From: Pelagibius sp.
GTDB taxonomy: Bacteria; Pseudomonadota; Alphaproteobacteria; Kiloniellales; Kiloniellaceae
Length of the DNA stretch: 24,000 nt
Assembly: GCF_028289705.1 (NCBI RefSeq)
Contig: NZ_JANQOI010000176.1
Location: 1-24,000, forward strand
Direction of reading: 5' to 3'
The position numbers and the translations under genes were made by a program. Below the pieces are notes generated by a model. The model searched no databases. It saw nothing but the letters and a program-made list of their open reading frames with translations, and was not told the origin of the DNA. Position 1 is the first letter of the stretch. Every line of letters begins with the position of its first letter. This document shows, piece by piece, positions 1 through 9,650 of this stretch.

Positions 1-38
1 TGCTTAGACGGAAACACTCTCGTGTTTGCGTCTAAGCA
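1..38. repeat. Inverted repeat (hairpin) at the window edge: 17-nt arms with one mismatch and a 4-nt loop
   Basis: 1-17 tgcttagacggaaacac, loop 18-21 tctc, 22-38 gtgtttgcgtctaagca. The reverse complement of arm 1 is gtgtttCcgtctaagca, giving one G-G mismatch. It lies just downstream of the stop (64-66) of a possible minus-strand ORF, so it could be that ORF's terminator. The flank beyond position 1 is not visible. Confidence 0.5.
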
Positions 39-63
39 TGTGAATCCGCTCTACACTTAAGAA

Positions 64-393
64 TTAGAGCAGATTCACCAGGCTCGATGGATCGCTCCCG
101 CGATTCCATCGCGCCAGGATCTGCTCTAGGCGGTTGCCGAATGCTCTGCAGAGCGCTGCGTCGTGCAGCTCTGCTACCTGTTCGCCGGCGTTACAGATCG
201 ATGTTGCTGCCGGATTTGTGGCGCAAGGCTTTGACTCATCGGTTAGTTGTCGGCTGTTGCCCGGAAATCCGCTGTAACGCCTGCGGACGAAGTGCCGGTG
301 GGAGGAAAAAGTGAAGGCTTCGAAATCAAGTGCTTGGCAGCTTGGCGTGGTCCTTGCTTGCGATTCACTGTTGAGGAGATCGCCGTCTGTCAT
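64..393 (-). CDS. Hypothetical small protein (weak call)
   Basis: This is the C-terminal part of track ORF 64..708 starting from the internal ATG at 393 (MTDGDLLNSES...RLEQILARWNRGSDPSSLVNLL). Third-position GC over the last ~40 codons is about 70%, above the local GC. A hairpin follows the stop. I recognised no family motif, and the start is uncertain. Confidence 0.2.
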   Translation of the reverse strand: MTDGDLLNSESQARTTPSCQALDFEAFTFSSHRHFVRRRYSGFPGNSRQLTDESKPCATNPAATSICNAGEQVAELHDAALCRAFGNRLEQILARWNRGSDPSSLVNLL

Positions 394-420
394 GGCGTCT
401 CGCTGATTAGGTGTCTGGTC

Positions 421-792
421 GTGCAGAACCAAGACCCTCAATGGCTCCAAGCTTTGCGCCGCCGCGGGCGCGCGGCGACCGCAGGGCTCGCCCTTTTCCT
501 GTTCGCATTTGCCGTCGCGCAGCCTGCTTTTGCGGACCCTCTCCCACGAATTCTGGAAGGCAGCGGTGACGACGCCCTGGCGAAGGTTCTTGCCGACGAA
601 GAGCTGGCAGGGGTGCGCGGGCGAGGGTTGGAAGGGGGAGACCTTACAGCGGTTGGGATGGGGCCCATCGCGGTCATTCTCTGGGATGAACTGACGGAAA
701 CTCAGCAAGGCAAGCTACAGGGGCCCCAGATCTCCCACAGCACAGGCATGGGCAATGGGCAGTCGAACAGTCTGGTCACCCATCAGCAATAG
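421..792 (+). CDS. Small Sec-secreted protein ending in a single Fap-type repeat; first gene of the Fap-like cluster
   Basis: In frame with track ORF 247..792. GTG at 421 is preceded by AGGTG (409-413); TTG at 454 is an alternative start. Signal peptide RRRGRAATAGLALFLFAFAVAQPAFA|DP. The C-terminus ISHSTGMGNGQSNSLVT (730-780) aligns with FapB-like repeat 1, INQSAGDGNLQSNTAFI, at 8 of 17 identical positions. Confidence 0.6.
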   Translation: MQNQDPQWLQALRRRGRAATAGLALFLFAFAVAQPAFADPLPRILEGSGDDALAKVLADEELAGVRGRGLEGGDLTAVGMGPIAVILWDELTETQQGKLQGPQISHSTGMGNGQSNSLVTHQQ

Positions 793-1348
793 GGAGCGAT
801 TCGTCCCGGCGTTCCGCTGCCGGCTGTTATCACCGCTTGCTGTTGCCTTGGCCCTGCTCGCCGTGGCCGCCCCTGAGCTCGATGCGCAGGAGAGCGAACT
901 GCGCGAGCCCGGCGTGATCGTGCTGAGGGAGGTTCCGCCACGTATTGCCGTCAGACCAGCTCTGCCGGCGCCGCCCTTCCTGGTGAGGACGGCGCCTGAG
1001 ATCGACGTCTCGGCGATGAGCCGCATCAGCCCTGCCCTGATGTCCGCCCTCCCGATTGCCAGGGGTGAGCTGCTGAGCGATCTGGAAGCCGCAACCATCG
1101 CCCCCGACATGCCAATCCTGTCCGGCACGGCCCGCCTCGTCACCGCCGGCAGTGGCAGCCTGGTCTCGCCGGCTCTGGCCGGGGGCTCCCGGCAAGCGGG
1201 TGTCCGGCCTGTCGCGGACGGCATCCGCTCGAGCCTGGCGGCAGCGGGGCTGCTCTCGCGGTCGACCGTCAATGGCAGTGATGGCGCCGTCCAGCAAGCG
1301 ACGCGCGGACTGGGCACGACCATCCGCAATGCGCTTGTCCCAAGATGA
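755..1348 (+). CDS. Secreted Ala/Ser/Pro/Arg/Gly-rich protein occupying the fapA position
   Basis: ATG at 755 overlaps the upstream gene by 38 nt. The hydrophobic signal-like segment is LLSPLAVALALLAVAAPELDA|QE. Third-position GC is high in this frame. Composition is low-complexity and probably disordered. I recognised no family motif; the FapA analogy is positional only. Confidence 0.55.
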   Translation: MGSRTVWSPISNRERFVPAFRCRLLSPLAVALALLAVAAPELDAQESELREPGVIVLREVPPRIAVRPALPAPPFLVRTAPEIDVSAMSRISPALMSALPIARGELLSDLEAATIAPDMPILSGTARLVTAGSGSLVSPALAGGSRQAGVRPVADGIRSSLAAAGLLSRSTVNGSDGAVQQATRGLGTTIRNALVPR

Positions 1349-1367
1349 GCGTCCGGAGCAAGGCACG

Positions 1368-1982
1368 ATGACCGATCGGATCGGATGGAGACTTGCAAGC
1401 GCCCTTGCGGTCCTGGCCGTGGCGCTCTGCCCCGCGGCGGCCTTTGCCGAGGAGCTGTTCGGCCGGACGATCATAGACGACGAGGCCCTGCGAGACTTCA
1501 CAGGGGCCGCCCTGATCAATCAGTCGGCCGGTGACGGGAACCTGCAGTCCAACACCGCCTTCATTGCCACAAACGCCGAGGCGCAGGCGCGGGTGCGTAT
1601 CTCGACGGTCCAGCTTTCGGCCGCCACTCCCGACGAAACGGTTCTCGATGCCTTCGCGTTGATCGAAGGTGATGCCTTTGCCGATGCACAGGGCGTGCTT
1701 CTGGTGACTCAGGGCGCGGGGCGAAACAATCTGCAGATCAATCACCTCGCGGCGGCCCTGGGTTTGGAAGGAGAGGTCCTTGTGGAGTCCGAGCTCAGCC
1801 AGAGCCGGGCCAATGCCCTCTCGCCGCTAGCCGAAGAGCGGGAAGGAAACCGGCTCGCCCATGTCGGGCCGGGGGCCTTCCGCGATGCCGGCGGTGTCAT
1901 CCAGGTCAACCAGGTCGCGGGGCAGGAGAACGCGACCTTCAACCGCTTTGTGCTGGGCGTATCCTCGAACGCGCTGCCCTAG
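1368..1982 (+). CDS. fapB: FapB-like amyloid subunit with three imperfect Asn/Gln/Gly/Ala repeats
   Basis: Internal ATG of track ORF 1152..1982, with GGAG 9 nt upstream. Signal peptide WRLASALAVLAVALCPAAAFA|EE. Repeats: FTGAALINQSAGDGNLQSNTAFIA (1497-1568), FADAQGVLLVTQGAGRNNLQINHLAAAL (1674-1757) and FRDAGGVIQVNQVAGQENATFNRFVLGV (1878-1961). It lies directly upstream of the FapC-like gene. Confidence 0.7.
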   Translation: MTDRIGWRLASALAVLAVALCPAAAFAEELFGRTIIDDEALRDFTGAALINQSAGDGNLQSNTAFIATNAEAQARVRISTVQLSAATPDETVLDAFALIEGDAFADAQGVLLVTQGAGRNNLQINHLAAALGLEGEVLVESELSQSRANALSPLAEEREGNRLAHVGPGAFRDAGGVIQVNQVAGQENATFNRFVLGVSSNALP

Positions 1983-2340
1983 GGGCTTTCGTGTTTTGAC
2001 GGCACCAGCCCGCTTCCCCTCCTACGACCAGACCTCTCGCCGGATTTCGGCAGCGCGTGATGCCGCGCACTGTCCGGCGGCGTTACAGCCGCACGCAAAA
2101 CTCAAAAGACCGCGCGTCTTCAGGTCTTTGACGGCAGGGGGGCGGGATTCGTGTAACGGCGGCGGACAGTGGTTGTCCTCGGGCTCTTTGCCGCCGCGGG
2201 AAAAGTCCGATCCAATTCAAAGGTTTCCGAGATTGGCACCGATCTTGCGTATTAGGGAGCAGGGGAAGCCTGCTGCAGCAGTTGGCGCGTGTGCCCCGCC
2301 AGCGACCCTTACGGGTCGAGGAACAACAGGAGATTGAGCA

Positions 2341-3195
2341 ATGAACACCAGATTGGGTTTGTTTGCCATGATCGCCGTCGGGGTATCCGCGCTCGTCGCT
2401 GTACCCATGGGCGCCTTGGCGCAATCGACCAGTGTCACCTTGACCAAGTCCTACGATGAAGACGTCGATGTCGACTACGACAACACCATCGATGTTGACA
2501 TCACCAAGGACATCGATGTCGAGAAGGACCTGAACTACACCGGAACCGTGGTGATCTCCGGTAACCTCAACGTCTCCGAGGCCGCCTTGTCGCTGATCGA
2601 CAACAAGCAGATCATCGATGACAACCTCGTCGAACCGCGGGGCGACGATCCCAGCATCACCAACATCACCGTGATCGATGGGACCGTGCTGAATGCGGCA
2701 CAGGGCAACATCGGTCTCAACGTGGCGGTTGGCGACAACCTGCTGCAAGAGAATGCGGCGGCTCTGTCGGCGATCGGCACCACCTCGGCTGCGGGATCGA
2801 GCGACGCCGAGATCTTCAGCATCCAGAAGACGATCAACAACGATTTCGACGAGAGTGAGGGCGATTCAGAGGTCCTCAACCAGATCCAGTTGTTGGGCGA
2901 CGTTCTGGGTGGGGCCTCGGGCAACGCCGGCGTGAACGTCGCAGCGGGTGCCTTCAATGCCCAGAAGAATGCCCTGGCGCTTGCTGCGGTGACCGGCACG
3001 GCCACCTTGTCGGAGGCGACGGCTGCGGTCCTGCAGGAATCGACCTTCAACGATACCTGGCACGCGCAGACCACCAACGACGTGAAGTTGGGCGATCAGG
3101 TCGCGGCCGGCTTCGTTGGCAACATCGGCATCAATCTGACGTCCGGTACCAACAATCTCCAACAGAACGCGATGTCCATCTCATCGGTTCAGTAG
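2341..3195 (+). CDS. fapC: FapC-like major functional-amyloid subunit
   Basis: Strong RBS AGGAGA (2328-2333). Signal peptide LFAMIAVGVSALVAVPMGALA|QS. It has three 30-aa imperfect repeats with the G-N-x-G-[LVI]-N-[VL]-[AT]-x-G-x-x-N-x-Q-x-N-A core that I remember from Pseudomonas FapC (GVNVAAG...N.Q.N). The protein is rich in N, Q, G and A and contains no Cys. Confidence 0.8.
   Translation: MNTRLGLFAMIAVGVSALVAVPMGALAQSTSVTLTKSYDEDVDVDYDNTIDVDITKDIDVEKDLNYTGTVVISGNLNVSEAALSLIDNKQIIDDNLVEPRGDDPSITNITVIDGTVLNAAQGNIGLNVAVGDNLLQENAAALSAIGTTSAAGSSDAEIFSIQKTINNDFDESEGDSEVLNQIQLLGDVLGGASGNAGVNVAAGAFNAQKNALALAAVTGTATLSEATAAVLQESTFNDTWHAQTTNDVKLGDQVAAGFVGNIGINLTSGTNNLQQNAMSISSVQ
2686..3189 (+). repeat. 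Three imperfect 30-aa coding repeats (R1-R3) within the FapC-like gene, separated by 42-aa and 36-aa linkers
   Basis: R1 2686-2775 VLNAAQGNIGLNVAVGDNLLQENAAALSAI. R2 2902-2991 VLGGASGNAGVNVAAGAFNAQKNALALAAV. R3 3100-3189 VAAGFVGNIGINLTSGTNNLQQNAMSISSV. Confidence 0.85.
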
Positions 3196-3217
3196 TCACG
3201 GTCATTGCTTACGGTCT

Positions 3218-3268
3218 GAGGGGGCTCCGGCCAAATCCATTGGTCTGAGCCTCCTCTTTCTTCCTCTT
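3218..3268 (+). terminator. Intrinsic-terminator-like hairpin immediately after the FapC-like stop codon
   Basis: 5' arm GAGGGGGCTCCGGCCAA (3218-3234), loop atcca, 3' arm TTGGTCTGAGCCTCCTC (3240-3256). That gives 17 positions with 14 Watson-Crick pairs, 2 G-U pairs and 1 mismatch, followed by the T-rich tract TTTCTTCCTCTT (3257-3268). Confidence 0.6.
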
Positions 3269-3290
3269 GGCAGGCCCGGGGGGCGCAACG

Positions 3291-4013
3291 ATGAGCGACA
3301 GATCCTCTTGGATATCTTGGATCGCAGTCGGCTTTGCCCTGGCCATCCTGGTTGGCTTCGCTCAAGCCGGTCGCGCGGGAGAGATCCGCTTTGGCGGGGT
3401 CCTGCCGGGCGGCGGTGTCATCAACAAGCCGGTGGTCAGTCTGCGCGAAGCCAGGTACGAGGGCCTGGTGCCGCAGGAGACCGACTTCAGTTGCGGTGCG
3501 GCCTCGGTGGCGACCATCCTGAAGTACGCCTACGGGAAGCCCACCAACGAATTTGAAGTTCTGAAGGCCATGCTTGCGGTCAGTGACGAGGAGACCGTCT
3601 TGCGCAGGGGCTTCTCGCTGCTCGATATCAAGCGCTATGTGGAATCCATCGGCATGAATGCCGTGGGGTTCAGGATCGCTCCCGAGAATCTGGACAAGAT
3701 CAAGATCCCCTCCATCGTCCTTCTGGATATCAGGGGCTATCGCCACTTCGTCGTCCTCAAGAAATCGACCAACGGCAAGGTCTACGTGGCCGACCCCGCC
3801 CTGGGAAACAAGGTCCTGCGCAAGGAGGATTTTGTCGCGTCCTGGAACGGGGTGGTCCTGGCGATCGTCGCGGAGGGCTATCAGGCCGATACCGCCCTGG
3901 CACAGGCGCAGGACCCGGTGAGTGCCAAGCGCCTGCTTGGCAGCCGGGCGCCGATCGTCAACGCCGACACCTTCGATTTCGGGACCCTTCATTCGGACCT
4001 GCACCGCTTCTGA
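3291..4013 (+). CDS. fapD: FapD-like periplasmic C39-family cysteine peptidase
   Basis: ATG at 3291 (the track ORF starts at 3267). N-terminal signal or anchor WISWIAVGFALAILVGFAQA. C39 signature: Q-x5-C in PQETDFSCGAAS (Cys codon 3492-3494), His in RGYRHFVVLKK (3744-3746), Asp in VYVADPALG (3792-3794). The position after the FapC-like gene matches fap operon order. Confidence 0.8.
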   Translation: MSDRSSWISWIAVGFALAILVGFAQAGRAGEIRFGGVLPGGGVINKPVVSLREARYEGLVPQETDFSCGAASVATILKYAYGKPTNEFEVLKAMLAVSDEETVLRRGFSLLDIKRYVESIGMNAVGFRIAPENLDKIKIPSIVLLDIRGYRHFVVLKKSTNGKVYVADPALGNKVLRKEDFVASWNGVVLAIVAEGYQADTALAQAQDPVSAKRLLGSRAPIVNADTFDFGTLHSDLHRF

Positions 4014-4323
4014 CCGCCCGCCCTAAGGTCCGGCCGGATCCGGAGGCCGGCTGGCGGAGGGAGTTTGACGGCCCTTGCGCGGTCCCGCAGGGCAGCTCCT
4101 TGTCGTGACAGTCACAGGTCCCGCATAGGGGGAATCCCCTATGGGGTTTCCCTTATTTACGGGCAGTCATTCCTGTGTCGACAATGACCGCTCTACTCCA
4201 GATGCAATCAAGTGCCTTTCGGCTTGAAGTTTGAAGGTGTCCGCGGCGCAGGCAGCGGGCGAGGGGCTGTCGACGGCCTGAGTTTCGGCTCTTGCCGTCG
4301 TCGGGACAGCAAAGGAGGGGCCG

Positions 4324-5259
4324 GTGAGACGTTTGGCCGGAAGTCCAAGCTGTACGCGCCTGCCGGCCCGGGTTTGCCGTCCCTTTACTCCAGGAAACCT
4401 GACGTCATTGATCCTGCTGCTGGCGGTCCTTCTGATGCTTGGCCCGGCGGCGAGCGGCTCGTCTTATCCCGATCTCAGCGCTTTTGAGAACGCCGCCGTG
4501 GTTCCGGACTCGGAACTGGCTGAGATGCGTGGGCGCTTCGTCGAAGGGGGTGAAGTCCAGCACTTCGGTATTCAGATGTTCACCGCCTGGCAGACCGGTG
4601 ACGGCGTGGTCCTCACCACCGGCCTGGAGTGGTCGGCCGACACTGCGGGTAACGCTCAGACGCCCACCATCAGCCTGCTTCAGTCACTGCCGGACGGCAC
4701 CATCGTCGATCCGGGAGCGGGACAAGGCCCGATATCGATCGATCCGCTGGAAGGGCTTGGCGGGGTGAATCCGGACATCGTCGAGGGACCGCCCCCTGTG
4801 CCTCTGCTCCTGACAGCCAATGCGGGCGGGCTGGAGACCGCCAGCGGTGTTGTCCAGAGCGTTCAGGCTGCGGGCGATGCGAACAGCATCGGCAACGACA
4901 TGCGCTTCAACGTCACCGAGGGGCAGGTCGCCGTCTCCTTTGCCCCGCCCCCGACGCCGCTCGGTCAACCCCTATCCCTGCTGGAGACGACGACGGTCGA
5001 GTTCGACGACGGAACGAGGGCCACCGCCTTCATTGAGCCGAACTCCATCGGCTACGTGGTCAGGATCGACGACTTCGGCACGGTCCTGCAGGAGGTGCGT
5101 GGCGGTGTCGGGCGGGTGGCCCAGCACGCAAACATTCGAAGTGACCTGAACGTCATCCGCAACACGGTGAACATCAACTTTGGACTGGCTCCCAGCGTCA
5201 ATGTGCTGCGGGCAAACGTCCGTTCGGTCTTCAACTTGACAAGGGATCTGCGCCGGTGA
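4324..5259 (+). CDS. FapE-like secreted protein (assigned by position plus one Fap-type repeat)
   Basis: GTG start at 4324 with strong RBS AAAGGAGGGG (4311-4320). Signal peptide LTSLILLLAVLLMLGPAASG|SS. The internal segment GVVQSVQAAGDANSIGN (from 4846) aligns with FapB-like R3, GVIQVNQVAGQENATFN, at 8 of 17 identical positions. It lies between the C39 peptidase gene and the channel gene. Confidence 0.55.
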   Translation: MRRLAGSPSCTRLPARVCRPFTPGNLTSLILLLAVLLMLGPAASGSSYPDLSAFENAAVVPDSELAEMRGRFVEGGEVQHFGIQMFTAWQTGDGVVLTTGLEWSADTAGNAQTPTISLLQSLPDGTIVDPGAGQGPISIDPLEGLGGVNPDIVEGPPPVPLLLTANAGGLETASGVVQSVQAAGDANSIGNDMRFNVTEGQVAVSFAPPPTPLGQPLSLLETTTVEFDDGTRATAFIEPNSIGYVVRIDDFGTVLQEVRGGVGRVAQHANIRSDLNVIRNTVNINFGLAPSVNVLRANVRSVFNLTRDLRR

Positions 5260-5377
5260 CGGAGCCTTGCCGAAGCGTCCGAAGCCGTCAGGCGATGCCG
5301 CCATTCCTTCCGTTGGCGGCCGGCCCCGACGCCGTCGACGGCAAGCCGCACAGCGCCGAATGGGGAGATGAGACGGC

Positions 5378-5980
5378 ATGATCTTCGCTTCACCCTGGCC
5401 GATTGGCCTCTGCGCCCTGATCCTTCTGGGTCTCGCCCCGGCGCCTGTCAGCGCCGCCGATGCCAATGGACAGTTTGCCACAAAGGGCATCGGCGTTCTG
5501 AGTTGCGGTGTATTCGTCGAAGCCCGTTCGCAAGGCGCGGCGACGGCTTCACGCTTGAAGGACTGGCTTGATGGTTACCTCACAGCAACCAATCGTTACG
5601 AGCCGAACACCTTCGATGTTGCCCCTTGGGGGCCCAGTGAGGTGTTCGCGATCATCATTGAGAACCATTGCCGGCAGAATCCCGATGAAGGTTTCGCCCA
5701 GGCAGCGCAGCGGCTGGTTCTCTCGATCGGCAATGATCGGCTGGCCCGGCGCTCGCCGTTGCGCACCGTGACGGCGAACGGAGCTAACACGCAGATCTAT
5801 GACGAGGTGCTCCGGCGCGTGCAAGCGCAGTTGGCCGAGCGCGGTCTCTACAACGGGCAGCCCGACGGTGTGTTTGGGCCCCGAACGCGGGATGCGATCG
5901 CCACCTTCCAGATCAGCGAAGGCATGGACGGTACCGGGCTTCCCGATCCGCTGACGGTCTGGAAGCTGGTCCAGCCCTGA
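5378..5980 (+). CDS. Secreted protein with a C-terminal peptidoglycan-binding (PG_binding_1-like) domain
   Basis: Signal peptide PIGLCALILLGLAPAPVSA|AD. The C-terminus QAQLAERGLYNGQPDGVFGPRTRDAIATFQISEGMDGTGLPDPLTVWKL matches the classic PGB1 pattern (G.Y.G..DG.FG..T..A...FQ...GL...G). I did not recognise the N-terminal domain. Confidence 0.75.
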   Translation: MIFASPWPIGLCALILLGLAPAPVSAADANGQFATKGIGVLSCGVFVEARSQGAATASRLKDWLDGYLTATNRYEPNTFDVAPWGPSEVFAIIIENHCRQNPDEGFAQAAQRLVLSIGNDRLARRSPLRTVTANGANTQIYDEVLRRVQAQLAERGLYNGQPDGVFGPRTRDAIATFQISEGMDGTGLPDPLTVWKLVQP

Positions 5981-6038
5981 GACGGCGCCGGGGTAGCCGT
6001 TCGGAAGACAGGAGTCGATTGGTCTGTTGAGGACGCCT

Positions 6039-7313
6039 ATGAGAATTGTCGCAGCGGTCTTGGGTGTTTGTCTGGCGGGGCTCCTCTGCCCCGCTGAAAC
6101 GCCTGCGCAGGAAACCGAGGTCGAGGTCCTGCGGCGCCAGGTCGAGCGGATGAGCAAGACCATCGAAACGCAAAATCGGGCCCTTCTGAACCTGGAAAGG
6201 CGCCTGCGCACCATTGAACAAGCGGCCCCGGCACCGCCGGCACCCACGCCGCCGGCTCAGCCGGCACCTCCCTTGGCGCCCGCGCCGCAGCAGCAGGATG
6301 CACCGCCTGCCCAGCCGCCGACGGCGGACGCCGAGGAAGAACCGGTAAAACGGGAAGCCGAGGCTCCCCGCTCGCTCGAGGTGGTCGCCGGCGAGGCTCA
6401 GGGCTTCTTCGGCGAACGCTTCACCATCGAGCCCTCCGTGACCTACACGCGGACCGACCGCTCGCAGATCGTGCTCAACGGCTTCCTGGCCCTCGACGCC
6501 ATCTTCCTGGGAAACATCAGCGTCGACGAGGTGGAGTCCGACATCGTGACTTTCGATATCACTGGGCGGATGGGGATCGGCGAAGACCTTCAGGTGGATG
6601 TCAACGTGCCCTACATCTACCGAATGTCGAACTTCATTTCCGGGGGAGCGGGCGGCGGCTCGGCGAGCCAGATCGAGAAGGCCATCAGCTCCGACAACCT
6701 CGGAGACATCAGCTTCGGCGCGAATTATCGCATCATCAACGAGACCGAGAACATACCGGACGTAGTGTTGAACCTGAGAGGCCGGGCGCCGACCGGCAAA
6801 CACCCCTTCGGCATCGAGGTGAGAGAGGTCGAGGGAAGCTCGGGGAACCTGACGGTTCCCGAGGAGCTGCCGACCGGCAACGGTGTCTGGCAGATATCCG
6901 GGGGCGCGTCGGTCCTGAAGACAATCGATCCGGCGCTGGTCTTCGCCAACTTCGACTATTTCTACAACTTCGAAAGGGATTTCAGCGATATCGGCTCTTC
7001 GCCCGGCGATCAGCCCGGCACGGTGGACGTCGGTGACTCCTTTCAGGTCGGCTTTGGCGTGGCTTACGCGCTGAACGAGGATTTCAGCCTCAGTCTCTCC
7101 TACTCGCAGCGCTGGTTCGAGGAGACGCGGACCAAGCTCGACGGTGGCGACTTTCAGGACGTCATCGGCAGCGACGCCAACGTGGCCCGGCTGAATACCG
7201 GCATGACCTACGCCCTCAACGACTACTTCACCCTCGTCACCAACGTCTCGGCCGGTCTGACGGAGGATGCGCCGGATGTGGAGGTGCGGGTGGGCTTCCC
7301 CATCAACTTCTGA
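6039..7313 (+). CDS. fapF: FapF-like outer-membrane amyloid secretion channel (coiled coil, Pro-rich linker, beta-barrel)
   Basis: ATG at 6039 with GAGGA 5 nt upstream (the track ORF starts at TTG 6027). Signal peptide RIVAAVLGVCLAGLLCPAETPA|QE. Heptad-like helix ETEVEVLRRQVERMSKTIETQNRALLNLERRLRTIEQ (6111-6221). Pro/Ala linker (6222-6344). The remainder shows alternating beta-strand patterns and ends VRVGFPINF with a terminal Phe, which is an OMP beta-signal. Confidence 0.8.
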   Translation: MRIVAAVLGVCLAGLLCPAETPAQETEVEVLRRQVERMSKTIETQNRALLNLERRLRTIEQAAPAPPAPTPPAQPAPPLAPAPQQQDAPPAQPPTADAEEEPVKREAEAPRSLEVVAGEAQGFFGERFTIEPSVTYTRTDRSQIVLNGFLALDAIFLGNISVDEVESDIVTFDITGRMGIGEDLQVDVNVPYIYRMSNFISGGAGGGSASQIEKAISSDNLGDISFGANYRIINETENIPDVVLNLRGRAPTGKHPFGIEVREVEGSSGNLTVPEELPTGNGVWQISGGASVLKTIDPALVFANFDYFYNFERDFSDIGSSPGDQPGTVDVGDSFQVGFGVAYALNEDFSLSLSYSQRWFEETRTKLDGGDFQDVIGSDANVARLNTGMTYALNDYFTLVTNVSAGLTEDAPDVEVRVGFPINF

Positions 7314-7342
7314 CGCCGGCGCCACCGCAGCCGATCCGACAG

Positions 7343-7360
7343 CCAAGCGGAACCGCTTGG
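7343..7360. terminator. Hairpin between convergent genes (the FapF-like gene and the response regulator gene)
   Basis: CCAAGCGG aa CCGCTTGG forms a perfect 8-nt inverted repeat. There is no U-tract on either strand, so terminator function is uncertain. Confidence 0.35.
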
Positions 7361-7378
7361 ACGTCAGTCGAAAACGCT

Positions 7379-7990
7379 CTAGGTGCCGATGCCCGCGGTC
7401 AGCGCAATGCGCACGAGATGGGCGAGGTTGCGGGCCTGCAGCTTTTCCATGACACGGGCCCGGTGGATTTCCACCGTCCGGGGGCTGATGCCCAGGTCAA
7501 AAGCGATCGACTTGTTGGACTGCCCGGCCACCAGTTGCTCCAGGACCTCCCGCTCGCGCGAGGTCAGGCGGGCGAAGCCACTGGGCAATGGCCTTTCCGC
7601 GCGGGCTGTTGAAGAGGTCTTCTTCCCGCGGAGAAGGGCACGCTCCACGCTCTCCAGCACCGTATCGCCGCTCAACGGTTTCTGGATGAAGTCCACCGCA
7701 CCCAACTGCATTGCACTGACAGCGCTGCGCACATCGCCCTTTCCGGTGATCATGATCACCGGCAGATCGTGGCGCCCATCCTTCAGCCGAGCCTGAACCT
7801 CCAGGCCGTTCAGGTCGGGCAGGTTGAGGTCAAGCAGCAGACAATCGCCAGAGGGCGCTCCTCCGCCGTCGAGCAGCGCCGTCCCGGATCCGTAGGTCTG
7901 CACCGCGAACCCGGCGGTTTCCAAAGTCATCCTCAAGGAGTCGAGAACTCCCTCGTCGTCATCGACCACAAGGACGGTCGACTTGCTCAT
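7379..7990 (-). CDS. FixJ/NarL-family response regulator (receiver domain plus LuxR-type HTH)
   Basis: The internal ATG at 7990 of track ORF 7379..8185 gives MSKSTVLVVDDDEGVL. Receiver motifs: DDD, LLLDLNLPD and FIQKP. The C-terminal LuxR HTH is LTSREREVLEQLVAGQSNKSIAFDLGISPRTVEIHRARVMEKL. Confidence 0.9.
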   Translation of the reverse strand: MSKSTVLVVDDDEGVLDSLRMTLETAGFAVQTYGSGTALLDGGGAPSGDCLLLDLNLPDLNGLEVQARLKDGRHDLPVIMITGKGDVRSAVSAMQLGAVDFIQKPLSGDTVLESVERALLRGKKTSSTARAERPLPSGFARLTSREREVLEQLVAGQSNKSIAFDLGISPRTVEIHRARVMEKLQARNLAHLVRIALTAGIGT

Positions 7991-8861
7991 CCATCGCCTC
8001 GCCTGTTGGAAGAAGGATATGGAAATCGGTCCCCTTACCCGGTTGTGAGCTTGCCGAAAGCCGTCCGCCATGCGCGGAGACGATGGCGTGGCAAATCGAC
8101 AGCCCGACCCCCATGCCGTCGGGCTTGTGACTGCGGATCGGCTTAAAGGTCCGCCTTGCGATCTGCGGAGGGAGGCCCGGTCCATTGTCAGAAATGATCA
8201 CTGCGACCAGATCATCGGCCTTCAGGTTGGTCCTTATGGCGATCGATCCGTTTTGACGGTCTCGCAGGGCTTCGATGCTGTTCCTGATCAGGTTGGCGAT
8301 GGCGAGCTGCACCTGGATTCTATCGATCTGCAGGAACGGCAAGGACCGGTCCAGCGCCAGTTCCAGCTTCACCGCATGCTCGCGCGCCATTGGGGACAGC
8401 TCGGCACTGCTCCGCTCGACGATGGCGTTGATGTCCTCGGCCGTGCGCTCCAGGTCCTCGTGATCCATGAGGGATCGCAGCCTGTGGAAGACCTGGGAGG
8501 CACGCGCAGATTCCTCGATCGCTTTCTCGATGCACTCGAGAGCTCTGTCGGGCACCTCCCCGCCGTGGGACACAAGGGTTGTGCGGCAGGCCTGAACGTA
8601 GTTGGCGATGGCGGACAGAGGTTGCGCCAACTCGTGCGCAAACACCGAAGCGGCATCAAGCTCCGCGGACCTGGCCTGCGCTCCAAGGCGGACTGCAGTG
8701 AAGTCCGCTAGCGCGCTGGAGCGCTCGTTGCGCTGCAGTGAGTAAGGCTCGCCGGAGGGTCGGGCTGATCCATTGGCCTTGCGGCGTGTGTCCGGCGGCG
8801 GGTGCGGTGGAACAGCCTGGCCACAGTCTTCCTCTGCGTATGGTCTGCGATCCATGCTCAT
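7959..8861 (-). CDS. Cytoplasmic histidine kinase (DHp plus HATPase) with no recognisable sensor or TM domain
   Basis: RBS GGGGGGAA lies upstream of the ATG at 8861. H-box FAHELAQPLSAI. N/G boxes LIRNSIEAL, DNGPGL and GMGVGLSI. Only about 75 low-complexity residues precede the H-box. The 3' end overlaps the response regulator start by 32 nt. Confidence 0.85.
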   Translation of the reverse strand: MSMDRRPYAEEDCGQAVPPHPPPDTRRKANGSARPSGEPYSLQRNERSSALADFTAVRLGAQARSAELDAASVFAHELAQPLSAIANYVQACRTTLVSHGGEVPDRALECIEKAIEESARASQVFHRLRSLMDHEDLERTAEDINAIVERSSAELSPMAREHAVKLELALDRSLPFLQIDRIQVQLAIANLIRNSIEALRDRQNGSIAIRTNLKADDLVAVIISDNGPGLPPQIARRTFKPIRSHKPDGMGVGLSICHAIVSAHGGRLSASSQPGKGTDFHILLPTGEAMDEQVDRPCGR

Positions 8862-9650
8862 CTTGAGTTCCCCCCTGTTGGGGTCCGAGACAAGACAGTT
8901 CTGGGCATGCAGTGCAGGGAAGCGACGTGGTGCGACCGGGCATCGCAGGGATCAGGTCAAAATACTGTCGCCATCTTCTTGCACGCCTCTCCCTCGGCCT
9001 GGCGCAGTCGTGGGAGCGTTTCGTTCGCTCGTCCGGGATTGCGCTATGCACCTGACCGTTGCTGCAAGATTCTGAAGCCGCCCGCCGGATTGGATTGCTG
9101 TTGCGCTCGTCCGAGCGGGCAAACCTCCCACTGAATCATCTATAACATTCAAGCAAGACGGACTGATGTCAGACGGGTTGGCTCTCCTCCGCTCTTTTGC
9201 GCCTTTGTGTACTCAGGGCGCCGGTTCAAATCGCGAAGCTGCGTCGACACTCACGTGTCAATCGTCCCGACCGTCCATGGCGCCGTCATGGGACCGCACC
9301 GACCGATTCGACAGGCTCGCCGTCAGAACCAGTTTCTCTGCCTCAAGGGGTATGGAACAGGAGACCTAAAAATTCAGCCGTACCCACCAATACAATCATG
9401 GTGAGAATTCGAACAATCTAAAGTACGCCTGTCAGTTAACCATATCACGCTGGCGAACTCAATCAGGGGGACAAGACAGACTCCTCAAAATCACTAGATC
9501 TCTGTGACAAATTGGTGGCCTGAGGTCGTTGAGGGCATTTAGGAGCGCTCCAAAGCGGGAGACGTCAGTCAAAGGCCTCAGACAGGCACGTCCCTGGCGC
9601 TCGCCGAGACCTTGAAACCCGGTATTCGATGGCCCACGACCGTATGCAAG

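Follow-up and report, generated by a model that had tools for sequence, protein, structure and literature searches.

FapE and the product of a small first gene, two secreted proteins encoded by a divergent Fap amyloid operon in a 24,000-nucleotide stretch of Pelagibius sp. DNA (the whole stretch analyzed, referred to here as the window), share a short, universally conserved N-terminal motif that looks like the recognition leader of FapD, the C39 peptidase of the same operon. The motif provides a concrete, testable candidate cut site for FapD, which is essential for Fap amyloid secretion, whose substrate has been unknown since 2013 and which, according to reviews up to December 2025, is still only "thought to process" FapE. 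The initial annotation had pointed out the shared segment and had proposed that it is a periplasmic pro-segment removed by FapD at the E-G-G with which it ends. We found that the observation itself is real, while its interpretation was only partly supported: the motif does look like a recognition and cleavage signal for FapD, a reading in which we have moderate confidence, but the proposed register and cut site were not supported.

The window encodes, in this order, the small gene, fapA, B, C, D and E, a gene for a peptidoglycan-binding protein and fapF, as detailed in the table. Homologues of FapB, FapC, FapD, FapE and FapF were thus present in one operon in the expected order, but all five scored below the NCBIfam equivalog cut-offs (96/190, 80/195, 258/330, 89/250 and 441/700 bits, respectively), this being a divergent alphaproteobacterial branch whose nearest genome loci are two alphaproteobacterial loci, L001 and L002.

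Table. Features of the fap operon, with positions given in the window
Positions	Strand	Feature	Basis and remarks
454..792	+	Small first gene ("FapX"): Sec signal peptide (MRRRGRAATAGLALFLFAFAVAQPAFA, followed by DP), leader-like motif, invariant I-L-W-D-E box, G-x-G-N-x-Q tail; start at TTG 454 or GTG 421	5 close orthologues; no Pfam or NCBIfam family matches
589..630	+	Leader-like motif of the small protein, L-A-D-E-E-L-A-G-V-R-G-R-G-L; invariant Gly (proposed P2) at 619-621, Arg (proposed P1) at 622-624	L(-5) and G(0) invariant across 20 family members; +1 is K, R, Q or T
631..639	+	E-G-G of the small protein, taken as the cut site by the initial annotation	Not conserved: EEG in one orthologue, EGL in another; most distant members have no GG here
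755..1348	+	FapA-like gene	Second position in the operon; GVIVLREVPPR resembles Pseudomonas FapA GIIIIKRDVQVR; no NCBIfam hit at E<0.01
1070-1105	+	Leader-like helix motif without the Gly in the FapA-like gene (LLSDLEAATIAP)	Pseudomonas FapA conserves NELSDGDFANVASGAG
1368..1982	+	FapB-like amyloid subunit	NCBIfam FapB E 1.7e-27
1473-1514	+	Head of FapB repeat 1 (IDDEALRDFTGAAL), the weaker relative named by the initial annotation; Gly at 1503-1505	Aligns with FapB repeat heads of other loci
2341..3195	+	FapC-like major amyloid subunit	NCBIfam FapC E 2.2e-22; repeat cores of the type GNIGLNVAVGDN
3267..4013	+	FapD-like periplasmic C39 cysteine peptidase; catalytic Cys76 codon at 3492-3494	Pfam Peptidase_C39 E 8e-22; NCBIfam C39_FapD E 4e-77 (4.2e-77)
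4324..5259	+	FapE-like protein	NCBIfam FapE E 2.9e-25; 8 close homologues; 372 family representatives at E<1e-3
4501..4542	+	Conserved leader-like motif of FapE, V-P-D-S-E-L-A-E-M-R-G-R-F-V; invariant Gly70 (proposed P2) at 4531-4533, Arg71 (proposed P1) at 4534-4536, Phe72 (proposed P1') at 4537-4539	Position statistics over 147 representatives; alignment with divergent systems
4543..4551	+	E-G-G of FapE, taken as the cut site by the initial annotation	Non-conserved loop between the leader and the first beta-strand
5378..5980	+	Peptidoglycan-binding-domain protein between fapE and fapF; does not carry the motif	Pfam PG_binding_1 E 1e-11; homologous gene at the same place in L001 and L002
6027..7313	+	FapF-like outer-membrane secretion channel	NCBIfam FapF E 3e-132 (3.4e-132)

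To examine whether the similarity exceeds chance, we first translated the segments concerned. Positions 4507-4551 encode DSELAEMRGRFVEGG and positions 595-639 encode DEELAGVRGRGLEGG, which share 10 of 15 identical positions, while the weaker relative proposed at the FapB N-terminus (1476-1511) reads DDEALRDFTGAA. BLASTP of the two whole ORFs gave a single 27-residue local match (13/27 identical, E 9e-5 for the pair) and nothing else, and a profile-profile comparison of 8 FapE-like proteins against 5 small-protein orthologues gave E 6.6e-6 over 31 columns. With 140 against 20 sequences the E value was 1.7e-8, but this alignment includes the signal peptides. A skeleton regex run over all six frames of the window hit only these three sites and one antisense junk ORF. 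Chance resemblance between two Gly/Arg/Glu-rich secreted proteins of a GC-rich genome, which the shortness of the segments and their common residues (G, R, E, L, A) might suggest, is refuted by the orthologue conservation across two families and more than 70 genomes described below, and these values also speak against it. The FapE-like motif ends 31 residues after the predicted signal peptide cleavage (AASG/SS, the slash marking a cleavage position), as the initial annotation had stated, while for the small protein (PAFA/DP) we counted 35 residues instead of 37. The claim that the flanking sequences are unrelated holds at sequence level, since both profile alignments stop a few residues after the motif. 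However, the motif is not private to these two proteins, but is a family-wide feature of FapE and is related to the head of Fap repeats. The description of two otherwise unrelated proteins is also too strong, as the motif skeleton recurs at the FapB N-terminus and, without the Gly, in FapA.

Alignment of orthologues, which had been named beforehand as a test, revealed that the conserved unit is not E-G-G but Φ-x-D-x-E-L-x-x-Φ-R-G-[R/K]-[F/Y], with Φ standing for a hydrophobic residue. In 147 FapE representatives from clusters at 50% identity, numbered from the invariant Gly as 0, we observed G(0) in 147/147, R103/K44 at +1, R139 at -1, M110/L19 at -2, L141 at -5, E79/D13 at -6, D139 at -8 and V/L/I 141 at -10. 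The motif was present in 76/76 fap loci that have sequence downstream of fapD. In contrast, a GG five or six residues after the invariant Gly, at the place of the E-G-G, occurred in only 17/147 representatives, and a GG anywhere within +1 to +9 in 18/147. Among the 8 closest FapE homologues this position reads GG, DG, AG or SG, in small-protein orthologues it is replaced by EG or GL, and in Pseudomonas FapE, for which N-terminal loss was observed, the corresponding sequence is V-M-P-G-R. The loop that contains it varies in length.

Cleavage at the downstream E-G-G, after G76 in FapE (4549-4551) and after the matching GG in the small protein (637-639), is therefore unlikely. It remains true that both window proteins have E-G-G at the same offset, that V73 would be a hydrophobic P4 and L65 a hydrophobic P12 in that register, that Croceicoccus has a second GG (PGG) in the same loop, and that the GG lies in the predicted flexible linker just before the folded domain, where a cut would be sterically easy. 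However, positions -7 and -8 would then be Gly and Arg instead of Leu and Glu.

The invariant element is R-G-[R/K], five residues upstream of the E-G-G, and with its Gly placed at -2 (P2) every canonical determinant of C39 leaders fits except P1. The published consensus is Leu-12/Glu-8/Leu-7, with hydrophobic residues at -4, -7 and -12, an acidic residue at -8 and Gly at -2 (PMC6363468). In this register FapE has M68(-4), L65(-7), E64(-8) and V60(-12), and the small protein has V, L, E and L at the same positions, with the Gly at -2 found in 147/147 FapE representatives and 20/20 small-protein members. The strict regex [LIVMF]xxxELxx[LIVMF]xG hit 69/155 FapE representatives against about 1 expected from shuffles, and in 854 kb of six-frame background 67 of its 77 hits were FapE motifs themselves. 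At -1, where such leaders have Gly, Ala or Ser, both window proteins have Arg. The pocket of solved C39 domains narrows at the cleavage site, which is said to explain the small residues there, and we found no acidic residue near the FapD active site that tracks systems with R/K as opposed to G-G; only a C-terminal tail column (LLDFGF) differed. In addition, F/Y at the position two residues after the Gly (146/147) and V/I at the third are as conserved as the leader, which is unusual for P' positions of C39 substrates and could mean that the whole segment is structural. Scanning the leader peptides against NCBIfam at E<=10 returned only the FapE model and no bacteriocin-leader model.

In six distant FapD/FapF-like operons (31-42% FapD identity) the homologous position is a true double glycine in that register. 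The gene following the peptidase reads ELATMRGGIRLP in Polymorphobacter, VLARQRGGIRLP in Croceicoccus, EMSSLRGGFV and EMSAIRGGFS in two Photobacterium, SLEEYRGGFQ in Vibrio and RLEESRGGFD in Cupriavidus. Both MAFFT and a FapE profile aligned this R-G-G to the R-G-[R/K] of Fap systems, the background rate of [LM]xxxRGG being 7.8e-5 per residue, and the outer-membrane partners hit the FapF model at E 1e-31 to 1e-49. In two Sphingomonadales operons the small upstream protein has A-G-K or A-G-R while the protein at the FapE position has R-G-G, all beside one peptidase. However, the FapE profile scored these divergent proteins at only 4-13 bits, so that homology beyond the motif is not established by sequence and rests on synteny plus the motif. 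A Neisseria locus with a FapD-like gene showed no obvious motif-bearing neighbour.

Other stand-alone C39 genes with signal peptides are located next to Sec-exported proteins with classical leaders, including the hemocin structural protein (LSQKEMSEVKGG/A), Acinetobacter (LSNQEMKDTQGA) and Tistrella (ITGA). The hemocin locus of Avibacterium paragallinarum plasmid p250 (HmcD, stand-alone C39 peptidase, hemocin structural protein), in which a Sec signal peptide is followed by a leader (VLSQKEMSEVKGG/A), is a precedent for post-Sec, periplasmic double-glycine processing, but it has a classical G-G, its cargo is a small Cys-rich bacteriocin, HmcD did not hit the FapF model and it is not an amyloid system. 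In the Acinetobacter Fil system, FilB (C39 peptidase) is 38% identical to FapD, the FapF-like FilC is above the NCBIfam cut-off, and the mature N-terminus of FilA (MQSMDDAALSAATGQDG) has D(-8), L(-5), G(0) and Q(+1) like small-protein variants. This single example is a weaker match, with Ala at -6 and -2, and lacks Fap repeats. In curli, the N22 segment of CsgA likewise is an N-terminal segment directing a secreted amyloid subunit to its outer-membrane channel, but it is not known to be removed by a dedicated peptidase, curli is not known to have a C39 enzyme and no sequence similarity is known.

The closest solved structure to the FapD of the window is LahT150 (6MPZ, E 7e-10), with Gln70, Cys76, His160 and Asp176 aligned to its Gln21, Cys27, His101 and Asp117. 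With the double-glycine leaders cut by the C39 domains of AMS/PCAT ABC transporters (LahT150, ComA, PCAT1) the motif shares the hydrophobic residues at -12, -7 and -4, Glu at -8, Gly at -2 and a cognate C39 peptidase with Gln/Cys/His/Asp encoded alongside. It differs in its P1 Arg or Lys, and in that the leader is not at the extreme N-terminus of a cytoplasmic precursor processed by a transporter-fused domain, but follows a Sec signal peptide and would be processed in the periplasm by a free-standing peptidase of 248 residues with its own signal peptide. The cargo is a folded protein of about 235 residues rather than a small peptide, and export is through an outer-membrane barrel (FapF) rather than an ABC transporter. 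Residues -11 to -4 of such leaders form a short helix, and in this region an AlphaFold2 model of FapE (140-sequence alignment, pLDDT 78) has a predicted helix at residues 62-67 (-10 to -5), though at a pLDDT of about 69 and in a monomer only, followed by a coil at 68-77 (pLDDT 65-69) and a confident beta domain from residue 78. A Foldseek search of this model against the PDB found no match with E<0.001, so the fold gives no functional hint.

In Pseudomonas sp. UK4, FapD acts in the periplasm, its catalytic Cys is required for secretion and the FapE N-terminus is missing in cells (Rouse et al. 2017, PMC5557850). Pseudomonas FapE carries the same motif (ELKDQELANLRGRYV), at about residues 27-41 of the precursor, and the first UK4 FapE peptide seen by mass spectrometry starts at residue 72 (Supplementary Data 6 of that study), with none from the leader. 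This is consistent with removal of the motif but not site-specific, as the gap is compatible with a cut anywhere before residue 72 and the tryptic peptides after the motif are too short or too long to be seen. Rouse et al. stated that Fap proteins lack canonical C39 sequences and pointed to GG/GA pairs further inside FapE and in the FapF linker without defining a site, and our literature searches found no defined FapD cleavage site. Compared to the UK4 operon, that of the window is alphaproteobacterial and has two extra genes.

We interpret the shared segment as the core of a double-glycine-type leader, Φ(-12)-x-D-x-E(-8)-L(-7)-x-x-Φ(-4)-R-G(-2)-[R/K](-1), located directly behind the Sec signal peptide of FapE and of the small protein and recognized by FapD. 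In this view residues -11 to -4 would form a short amphipathic helix lying in the hydrophobic groove of FapD, which would cut at or next to G70-R71/F72 in FapE (4534-4536/4537; the site is spanned by AVVPDSELAEMRGRFVEGGEVQ and by AVVPDSELAEMRGRFVEGGEVQHF) and after R-G-R in the small protein (622-624). The leader of roughly 26 residues would be released, probably as the substrate is handed to the FapF channel, and the E-G-G would be an incidental turn. Conservation of the motif, its register match to published C39 determinants, the G-G at the homologous position in distant systems and the intact FapD catalytic triad are established by our comparisons, while binding of the motif by FapD, cleavage there, the exact scissile bond and coupling to FapF are inferred from comparative evidence alone. 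If correct, this reading extends double-glycine leader recognition to the periplasm, to folded cargo and to a basic P1 residue, and links Fap, Fil and several unnamed C39/FapF-like operons into one secretion logic. It would also explain why trypsin-based mapping failed, since a cut after Arg or Lys looks like a tryptic end, reduces the question of the FapD substrate to a one-peptide experiment and offers a defined target for blocking Pseudomonas biofilm amyloid.

Alternatively, the motif might be an uncleaved docking or targeting signal by which FapE and the small protein bind the periplasmic domain of FapF, FapD acting as a chaperone, or FapA, with the N-terminal loss of FapE due to another event. 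We consider this doubtful. The motif co-occurs with both FapD-like and FapF-like genes, so that its partner cannot be assigned from synteny alone, C39-like domains can bind substrates without cutting them (PMC6363468), FapA carries a similar helix without the Gly and is not processed, Arg or Lys at P1 fits poorly with a narrow S1 pocket, and Rouse et al. proposed a FapF-targeting role for the FapE N-terminus. On the other hand, the requirement for the FapD catalytic Cys means that some substrate must be cut, the invariant Gly and the true G-G in distant systems point at a scissile site rather than a mere handle, and leader-region peptides of FapE are absent in vivo.

The skeleton also resembles the head of Fap repeats, and common ancestry with a beta-strand element is possible. 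The 289 FapB/C repeat heads examined share Φ(-10), D/G/S(-8), L/F(-5), R/S(-1), G(0) and Φ(+2), in Methylotenera and Polaromonas FapB repeat 1 begins with VLSHVRGRFAVNMTAGD, a FapE-type motif fused to a repeat core, FapE has one true repeat in its middle (LETARGVVQSVQAAGD) and FapE is found in fibrils. The motif could thus be an orphan repeat head that lets FapE and the small protein pair with FapB/FapC repeats to nucleate, cap or anchor fibrils, without relation to the peptidase, but this appears unlikely. After the Gly, FapE reads RFVEGGEVQHFG and the small protein RGLEGGDLTAVG, with no Asn at +5 and no A-G-x-x-N core, and they fail the minimal pattern X15-G-X4-N-X3-G-X6-N-X7 (Dueholm 2013). 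Position -2 from the invariant Gly (C39 P4) is hydrophobic in 134/147 FapE representatives but A/G/S/T in 269/289 repeat heads, which sets the leader class apart from ordinary repeat heads. Furthermore, AlphaFold predicts a helix rather than a strand there, the region is missing from cellular FapE, and the same motif occurs in bacteriocin-like, non-amyloid neighbours of stand-alone C39 peptidases.

A more far-reaching possibility, which we regard as tentative, is that FapD-type periplasmic C39 peptidases and FapF-type barrels form a widespread, Sec-dependent, leader-guided outer-membrane export route in which every substrate carries a double-glycine-type leader behind its signal peptide. Classical Fap systems would have switched P1 from Gly to Arg/Lys, FapE and FapX would be the true FapD substrates, and FapA, with an uncleavable copy of the leader helix, would act as a pseudo-substrate regulator.

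The small first gene belongs to a previously undescribed Fap-associated family that annotation pipelines currently leave unnamed. Its identification as FapA was rejected, since the next gene resembles Pseudomonas FapA and the operons of Halomonas, Methylotenera and Acidiferrobacterales have both genes. An AlphaFold2 model built with its 5 close orthologues was uninformative (pLDDT 44.6), and profile comparison of its tail with Fap repeat cores gave only a weak resemblance (E 0.0024, probability 12%), too weak to call it a repeat. The same family is the first gene of 15 non-Pseudomonas fap loci.

To establish whether the resemblance described in the initial annotation was genuine, we first translated the three segments that it had singled out, and the two principal segments, located in the small first gene product and the FapE-like protein, were indeed found where they had been placed (see the table of coordinates) and shared 10 of 15 identical residues. 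BLASTP of the two whole ORFs found a single 27-residue local match (13/27 identical, E 9e-5) and nothing else, while profile-profile comparison of the two orthologue sets gave E 6.6e-6 over 31 columns. A skeleton regex run over all six frames of the window hit only these three sites and one antisense junk ORF. The observation therefore held, and the resemblance is real and local.

Coordinates of the features in the window and in the compared loci (L numbers denote the genome and plasmid loci retrieved around FapD or FapD-like genes)
Locus	Feature	Coordinates	Remark
Window	Small gene	454-792
Window	Segment in the small gene product	595-639	DEELAGVRGRGLEGG
Window	Proposed cut in the small protein	after 622-624
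Window	FapA-like gene	755-1348
Window	Leader-like helix in the FapA-like protein	1070-1105	LLSDLEAATIAP
Window	FapB-like gene	1368-1982
Window	Third segment, in the FapB-like protein	1476-1511	DDEALRDFTGAA
Window	FapC-like gene	2341-3195
Window	FapD C39 peptidase gene	3267-4013
Window	FapD Cys76 codon	3492-3494
Window	FapE-like gene	4324-5259
Window	Segment in the FapE-like protein	4507-4551	DSELAEMRGRFVEGG
Window	Proposed cut in the FapE-like protein, R71|F72	4536|4537
Window	Peptidoglycan-binding gene	5378-5980
Window	FapF gene	6027-7313
Window	LuxR/FixJ-type response regulator ORF	7379-8185	minus strand
Window	Histidine-kinase-like ORF	7959-8861	minus strand
L001	Three tandem FapC paralogues	3556-6662
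L001	Peptidoglycan-binding gene	8879-9571
L002	Peptidoglycan-binding gene	5480-6139
L003	Small gene	4828-5244
L005	Small gene	4000-4380
L005	FapB with FapE-type motif in repeat 1	4972-5598
L006	FapB with FapE-type motif in repeat 1	~5172
L007	Small gene	4023-4445
L022	Pseudomonas FapA	4574-5008
L028 (Halomonas sp. NO4)	Two copies of the small gene and of fapE	~100-3000 and 4179-8700
L082 (Sphingomonadales)	Proteins upstream and downstream of the peptidase	6652-6966 and 7648-8331
L085 (Sphingomonadales)	Proteins upstream and downstream of the peptidase	5600-5995 and 6693-7409
L094 (Avibacterium plasmid p250)	Hemocin structural protein	3626-3928

Bases 1-7313 of the window hold a divergent fap operon in which the best NCBIfam hits are the Fap models, but all five Fap homologues scored below the equivalog cut-offs, so that automatic annotation would leave the operon largely hypothetical. 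Pfam recognized only the C39, PG-binding and barrel domains. The nearest genome loci are alphaproteobacterial (L001 and L002), which lies outside the Beta/Gamma/Delta range reported for the Fap system in 2013, and in L001, the closest genome relative of the operon, the three tandem FapC paralogues are nearly identical. The peptidoglycan-binding-domain protein is inserted between fapE and fapF in the alphaproteobacterial operons only and is not part of the canonical fapABCDEF. FapD of the window aligned to LahT150 (6MPZ, E 7e-10) with Gln70, Cys76, His160 and Asp176 on the catalytic residues, and the Cys codon named in the initial annotation is correct. Immediately downstream of fapF, the response regulator and histidine-kinase-like ORFs lie on the opposite strand and may regulate the operon.

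A profile search returned 372 FapE family representatives, of which 147 could be anchored on the motif. Numbering the Gly of R-G-R as 0, these 147 representatives carried V/L/I at -10 (141), D at -8 (139), E (79) or D (13) at -6, L at -5 (141), A/G/S at -4 (136), M (110) or L (19) at -2, R at -1 (139), G at 0 (147), R (103) or K (44) at +1, F (105) or Y (41) at +2 and V/I at +3 (110). Among 80 fap loci fetched around FapD, 73 matched a regex for the motif in the gene after fapD and three more carried a variant, ..EQQLSEIRGKFI, while the other four end before that gene, which makes 76 of 76 loci with sequence there. Pseudomonas reads ELKDQELANLRGRYVMPGR and Halomonas reads LSDSELRQMRGRFVDKGS. 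Chance as an explanation is excluded.

In contrast, the E-G-G that had been taken as the double glycine is not the conserved part. GG at +5/+6 occurred in 17/147 representatives and GG anywhere in +1..+9 in 18/147, the eight closest homologues read GG, DG, GG, AG, AG, AG, SG and GG, and the loop between the motif and the next conserved block (V-x-Y-F-G-V-x-M) varies in length. In the orthologues of the small protein the pair becomes EG or GL. The interpretation offered in the initial annotation, a pro-segment removed by the FapD-like peptidase after E-G-G, is thus supported only in part, since a cut after E-G-G is unlikely on conservation grounds.

The small protein is not FapA, since the next gene resembles Pseudomonas FapA (GVIVLREVPPR against GIIIIKRDVQVR) and the operons of Halomonas, Methylotenera and Acidiferrobacterales have both genes. 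Its family is the first gene in 15 of the non-Pseudomonas loci (L003, L005, L007 and 12 more) and was found in none of the Pseudomonas loci. The architecture comprises a signal peptide, 20-45 variable residues, the motif Φ-x-D-x-x-L-x-x-Φ-x-G-[K/R/Q]-[G/Y/F], 10-15 variable residues, an invariant I-L-W-D-E box, a polar linker and a [S/T]-G-x-G-N-x-Q tail, and no Pfam or NCBIfam model covers it. In Halomonas sp. NO4 (L028), the two copies of the small gene and of fapE lie about 5 kb apart, which suggests tandem or duplicated fap operons in one genome.

To investigate the register of the motif, we compared it with double-glycine leaders, for which the reported consensus is Leu-12/Glu-8/Leu-7. 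In the LahT150-leader crystal structure, residues -4 to -11 form a two-turn helix, -3 tolerates Lys and the pocket narrows at the Gly pair (PMC6363468). With the invariant Gly placed at -2, FapE has V60 at -12, E64 at -8, L65 at -7, M68 at -4, R69 at -3, G70 at -2 and R71 at -1, and every determinant fits except P1, whereas in the register of the initial annotation (G75/G76) positions -7 and -8 would be Gly and Arg. The strict regex [LIVMF]xxxELxx[LIVMF]xG hit 69/155 FapE representatives against about one expected from shuffles, and in 854 kb of six-frame background 67 of 77 hits were the FapE motifs themselves.

A tblastn search of FapD against the plasmid/chromid collection found FapD-like genes at 31-42% identity, and their neighbourhoods were read. 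After its signal peptide, the product of the gene directly following the peptidase begins with ITDYELATMRGGIRLPDG in Polymorphobacter, LSEEVLARQRGGIRLPGG in Croceicoccus, LTDDEMSSLRGGFVSIND in Photobacterium DA100, MTKSEMSAIRGGFSAEG in Photobacterium GJ3, LSNSSLEEYRGGFQITD in Vibrio and SVDELDRSVGRLLLPDG in Indioceanicola, while Cupriavidus has RLEESRGGFDVAG, but far into a longer protein. An unsupervised MAFFT alignment put R-G-G in the columns of R-G-[R/K], and a Fap-FapE profile did the same, though with weak scores (conditional E 1e-5 to 5e-3). The pattern [LM]xxxRGG occurs at 7.8e-5 per residue in background. The outer-membrane partners of four of these loci hit the FapF model (E 1e-31 to 1e-49), and the Acinetobacter one is FilC. 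Small genes upstream of the peptidase carry the motif too (..YETRGG, ..THSRGG, ..DDVRGG, ..GEVAGK and ..QATAGR). In the two Sphingomonadales operons (L082 and L085) the small upstream protein has A-G-K or A-G-R while the downstream protein has R-G-G at the same motif position, so that G-G and G-[K/R] coexist beside one peptidase, which seems to face both kinds of P1. Further free-standing C39 genes sit beside Sec-exported proteins with near-classical leaders, namely hemocin (VLSQKEMSEVKGG|A), an Acinetobacter plasmid protein (LSNQEMKDTQGA), Tistrella (..NITGA) and Deinococcus (LSDAELDEVKGE). Among these the hemocin structural protein (L094), with a Sec signal peptide followed by a classical double-glycine leader, is an apparent periplasmic analogue of PCAT processing.

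AlphaFold2 on a 140-sequence FapE alignment (mean pLDDT 78) predicted a helix at residues 62-67, a coil at 68-77 (pLDDT 65-69) and a confident beta domain from residue 78. The motif is thus modelled as an appendage ahead of the fold, with the predicted helix covering -10 to -5. In whole-cell digests of Pseudomonas UK4 the first FapE peptide starts at residue 72, while FapA to FapD are covered from their N-termini (Rouse 2017). Judging from a Pseudomonas sequence, the only well-sized tryptic peptides before that point are the two in the leader, and R-G-R is followed by a 6-mer and then a peptide of about 50 residues. The published data therefore fit a cut at the motif but do not locate it, and a cut after Arg or Lys would be indistinguishable from a tryptic end.

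Based on these data we propose that, after Sec export and signal-peptide removal, FapE and the small protein would expose a leader of about 20-35 residues whose helix would dock in the groove of FapD with the invariant Gly at S2, that the chain would be cut at or next to G-[R/K], and that the cargo would then pass to FapF. The conservation of the motif, its register, the equivalence with G-G and the intact catalytic residues rest directly on the analyses presented here, whereas binding by FapD, cleavage, the exact bond and coupling to FapF are inferred. The main difficulty is a basic P1, as no compensating acidic residue was found in the R/K-type FapD, and an uncleaved docking or targeting signal remains possible. 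FapD of the R/K-type (classical Fap) systems, including that of the window and of L001-L080, ends within its C-terminal ~25 residues in a conserved tail, P-L-T-x-x-x-L-L-D-F-G-F-x-H-x-D-L-F, while the G-G-type FapD-like peptidases (L082-L085) have a different tail; the conserved tail may make contact with FapF or with the P1 residue. Rouse 2017 stated that Fap proteins lack canonical C39 sequences and pointed to other GG/GA pairs, and the later papers and reviews that could be searched, which did not extend to subscription journals, give no site. Within that literature, the motif, its register and the small-protein family are undescribed, and the proposed leader would be a double-glycine-type leader used after Sec export, with Arg or Lys at P1.

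The motif is also related to the Fap repeats. A total of 289 FapB/C repeat heads share a skeleton of Φ(-10), D/G/S(-8), L/F(-5), S/R(-1), G(0), Φ(+2), followed by G-Φ-N-x-x-A-G-x-x-N. FapB repeat 1 of the window (IIDDEALRDFTGAALINQ) and of Methylotenera and Polaromonas (VLSHVRGRFAVNM) are intermediates, and the FapB segment that the initial annotation had called a weaker relative is a real relative. In Methylotenera, Polaromonas and Methylophaga (L005, L006, L010, L017, L019 and L029) the first FapB repeat begins with the full FapE-type motif (..VLSHVRGRFAVNMTAGD), and FapB may therefore also be a peptidase substrate in those lineages. However, the FapE and small-protein motif lacks the repeat core, and position -2 is hydrophobic in 134/147 FapE representatives but A/G/S/T in 269/289 repeat heads. 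We therefore treat it as a separate class. An orphan repeat head used for fibril pairing is also possible, but the AlphaFold model and the bacteriocin-like examples argue against it. FapA, in the window as well as in Pseudomonas (L022 and 18 other loci), where it reads NELSDGDFANVASGAG, carries a conserved leader-like helix with the acidic and hydrophobic spacing of the FapE motif but without the invariant Gly. It could be an uncleavable pseudo-substrate of FapD, and FapA is reported to be unprocessed.
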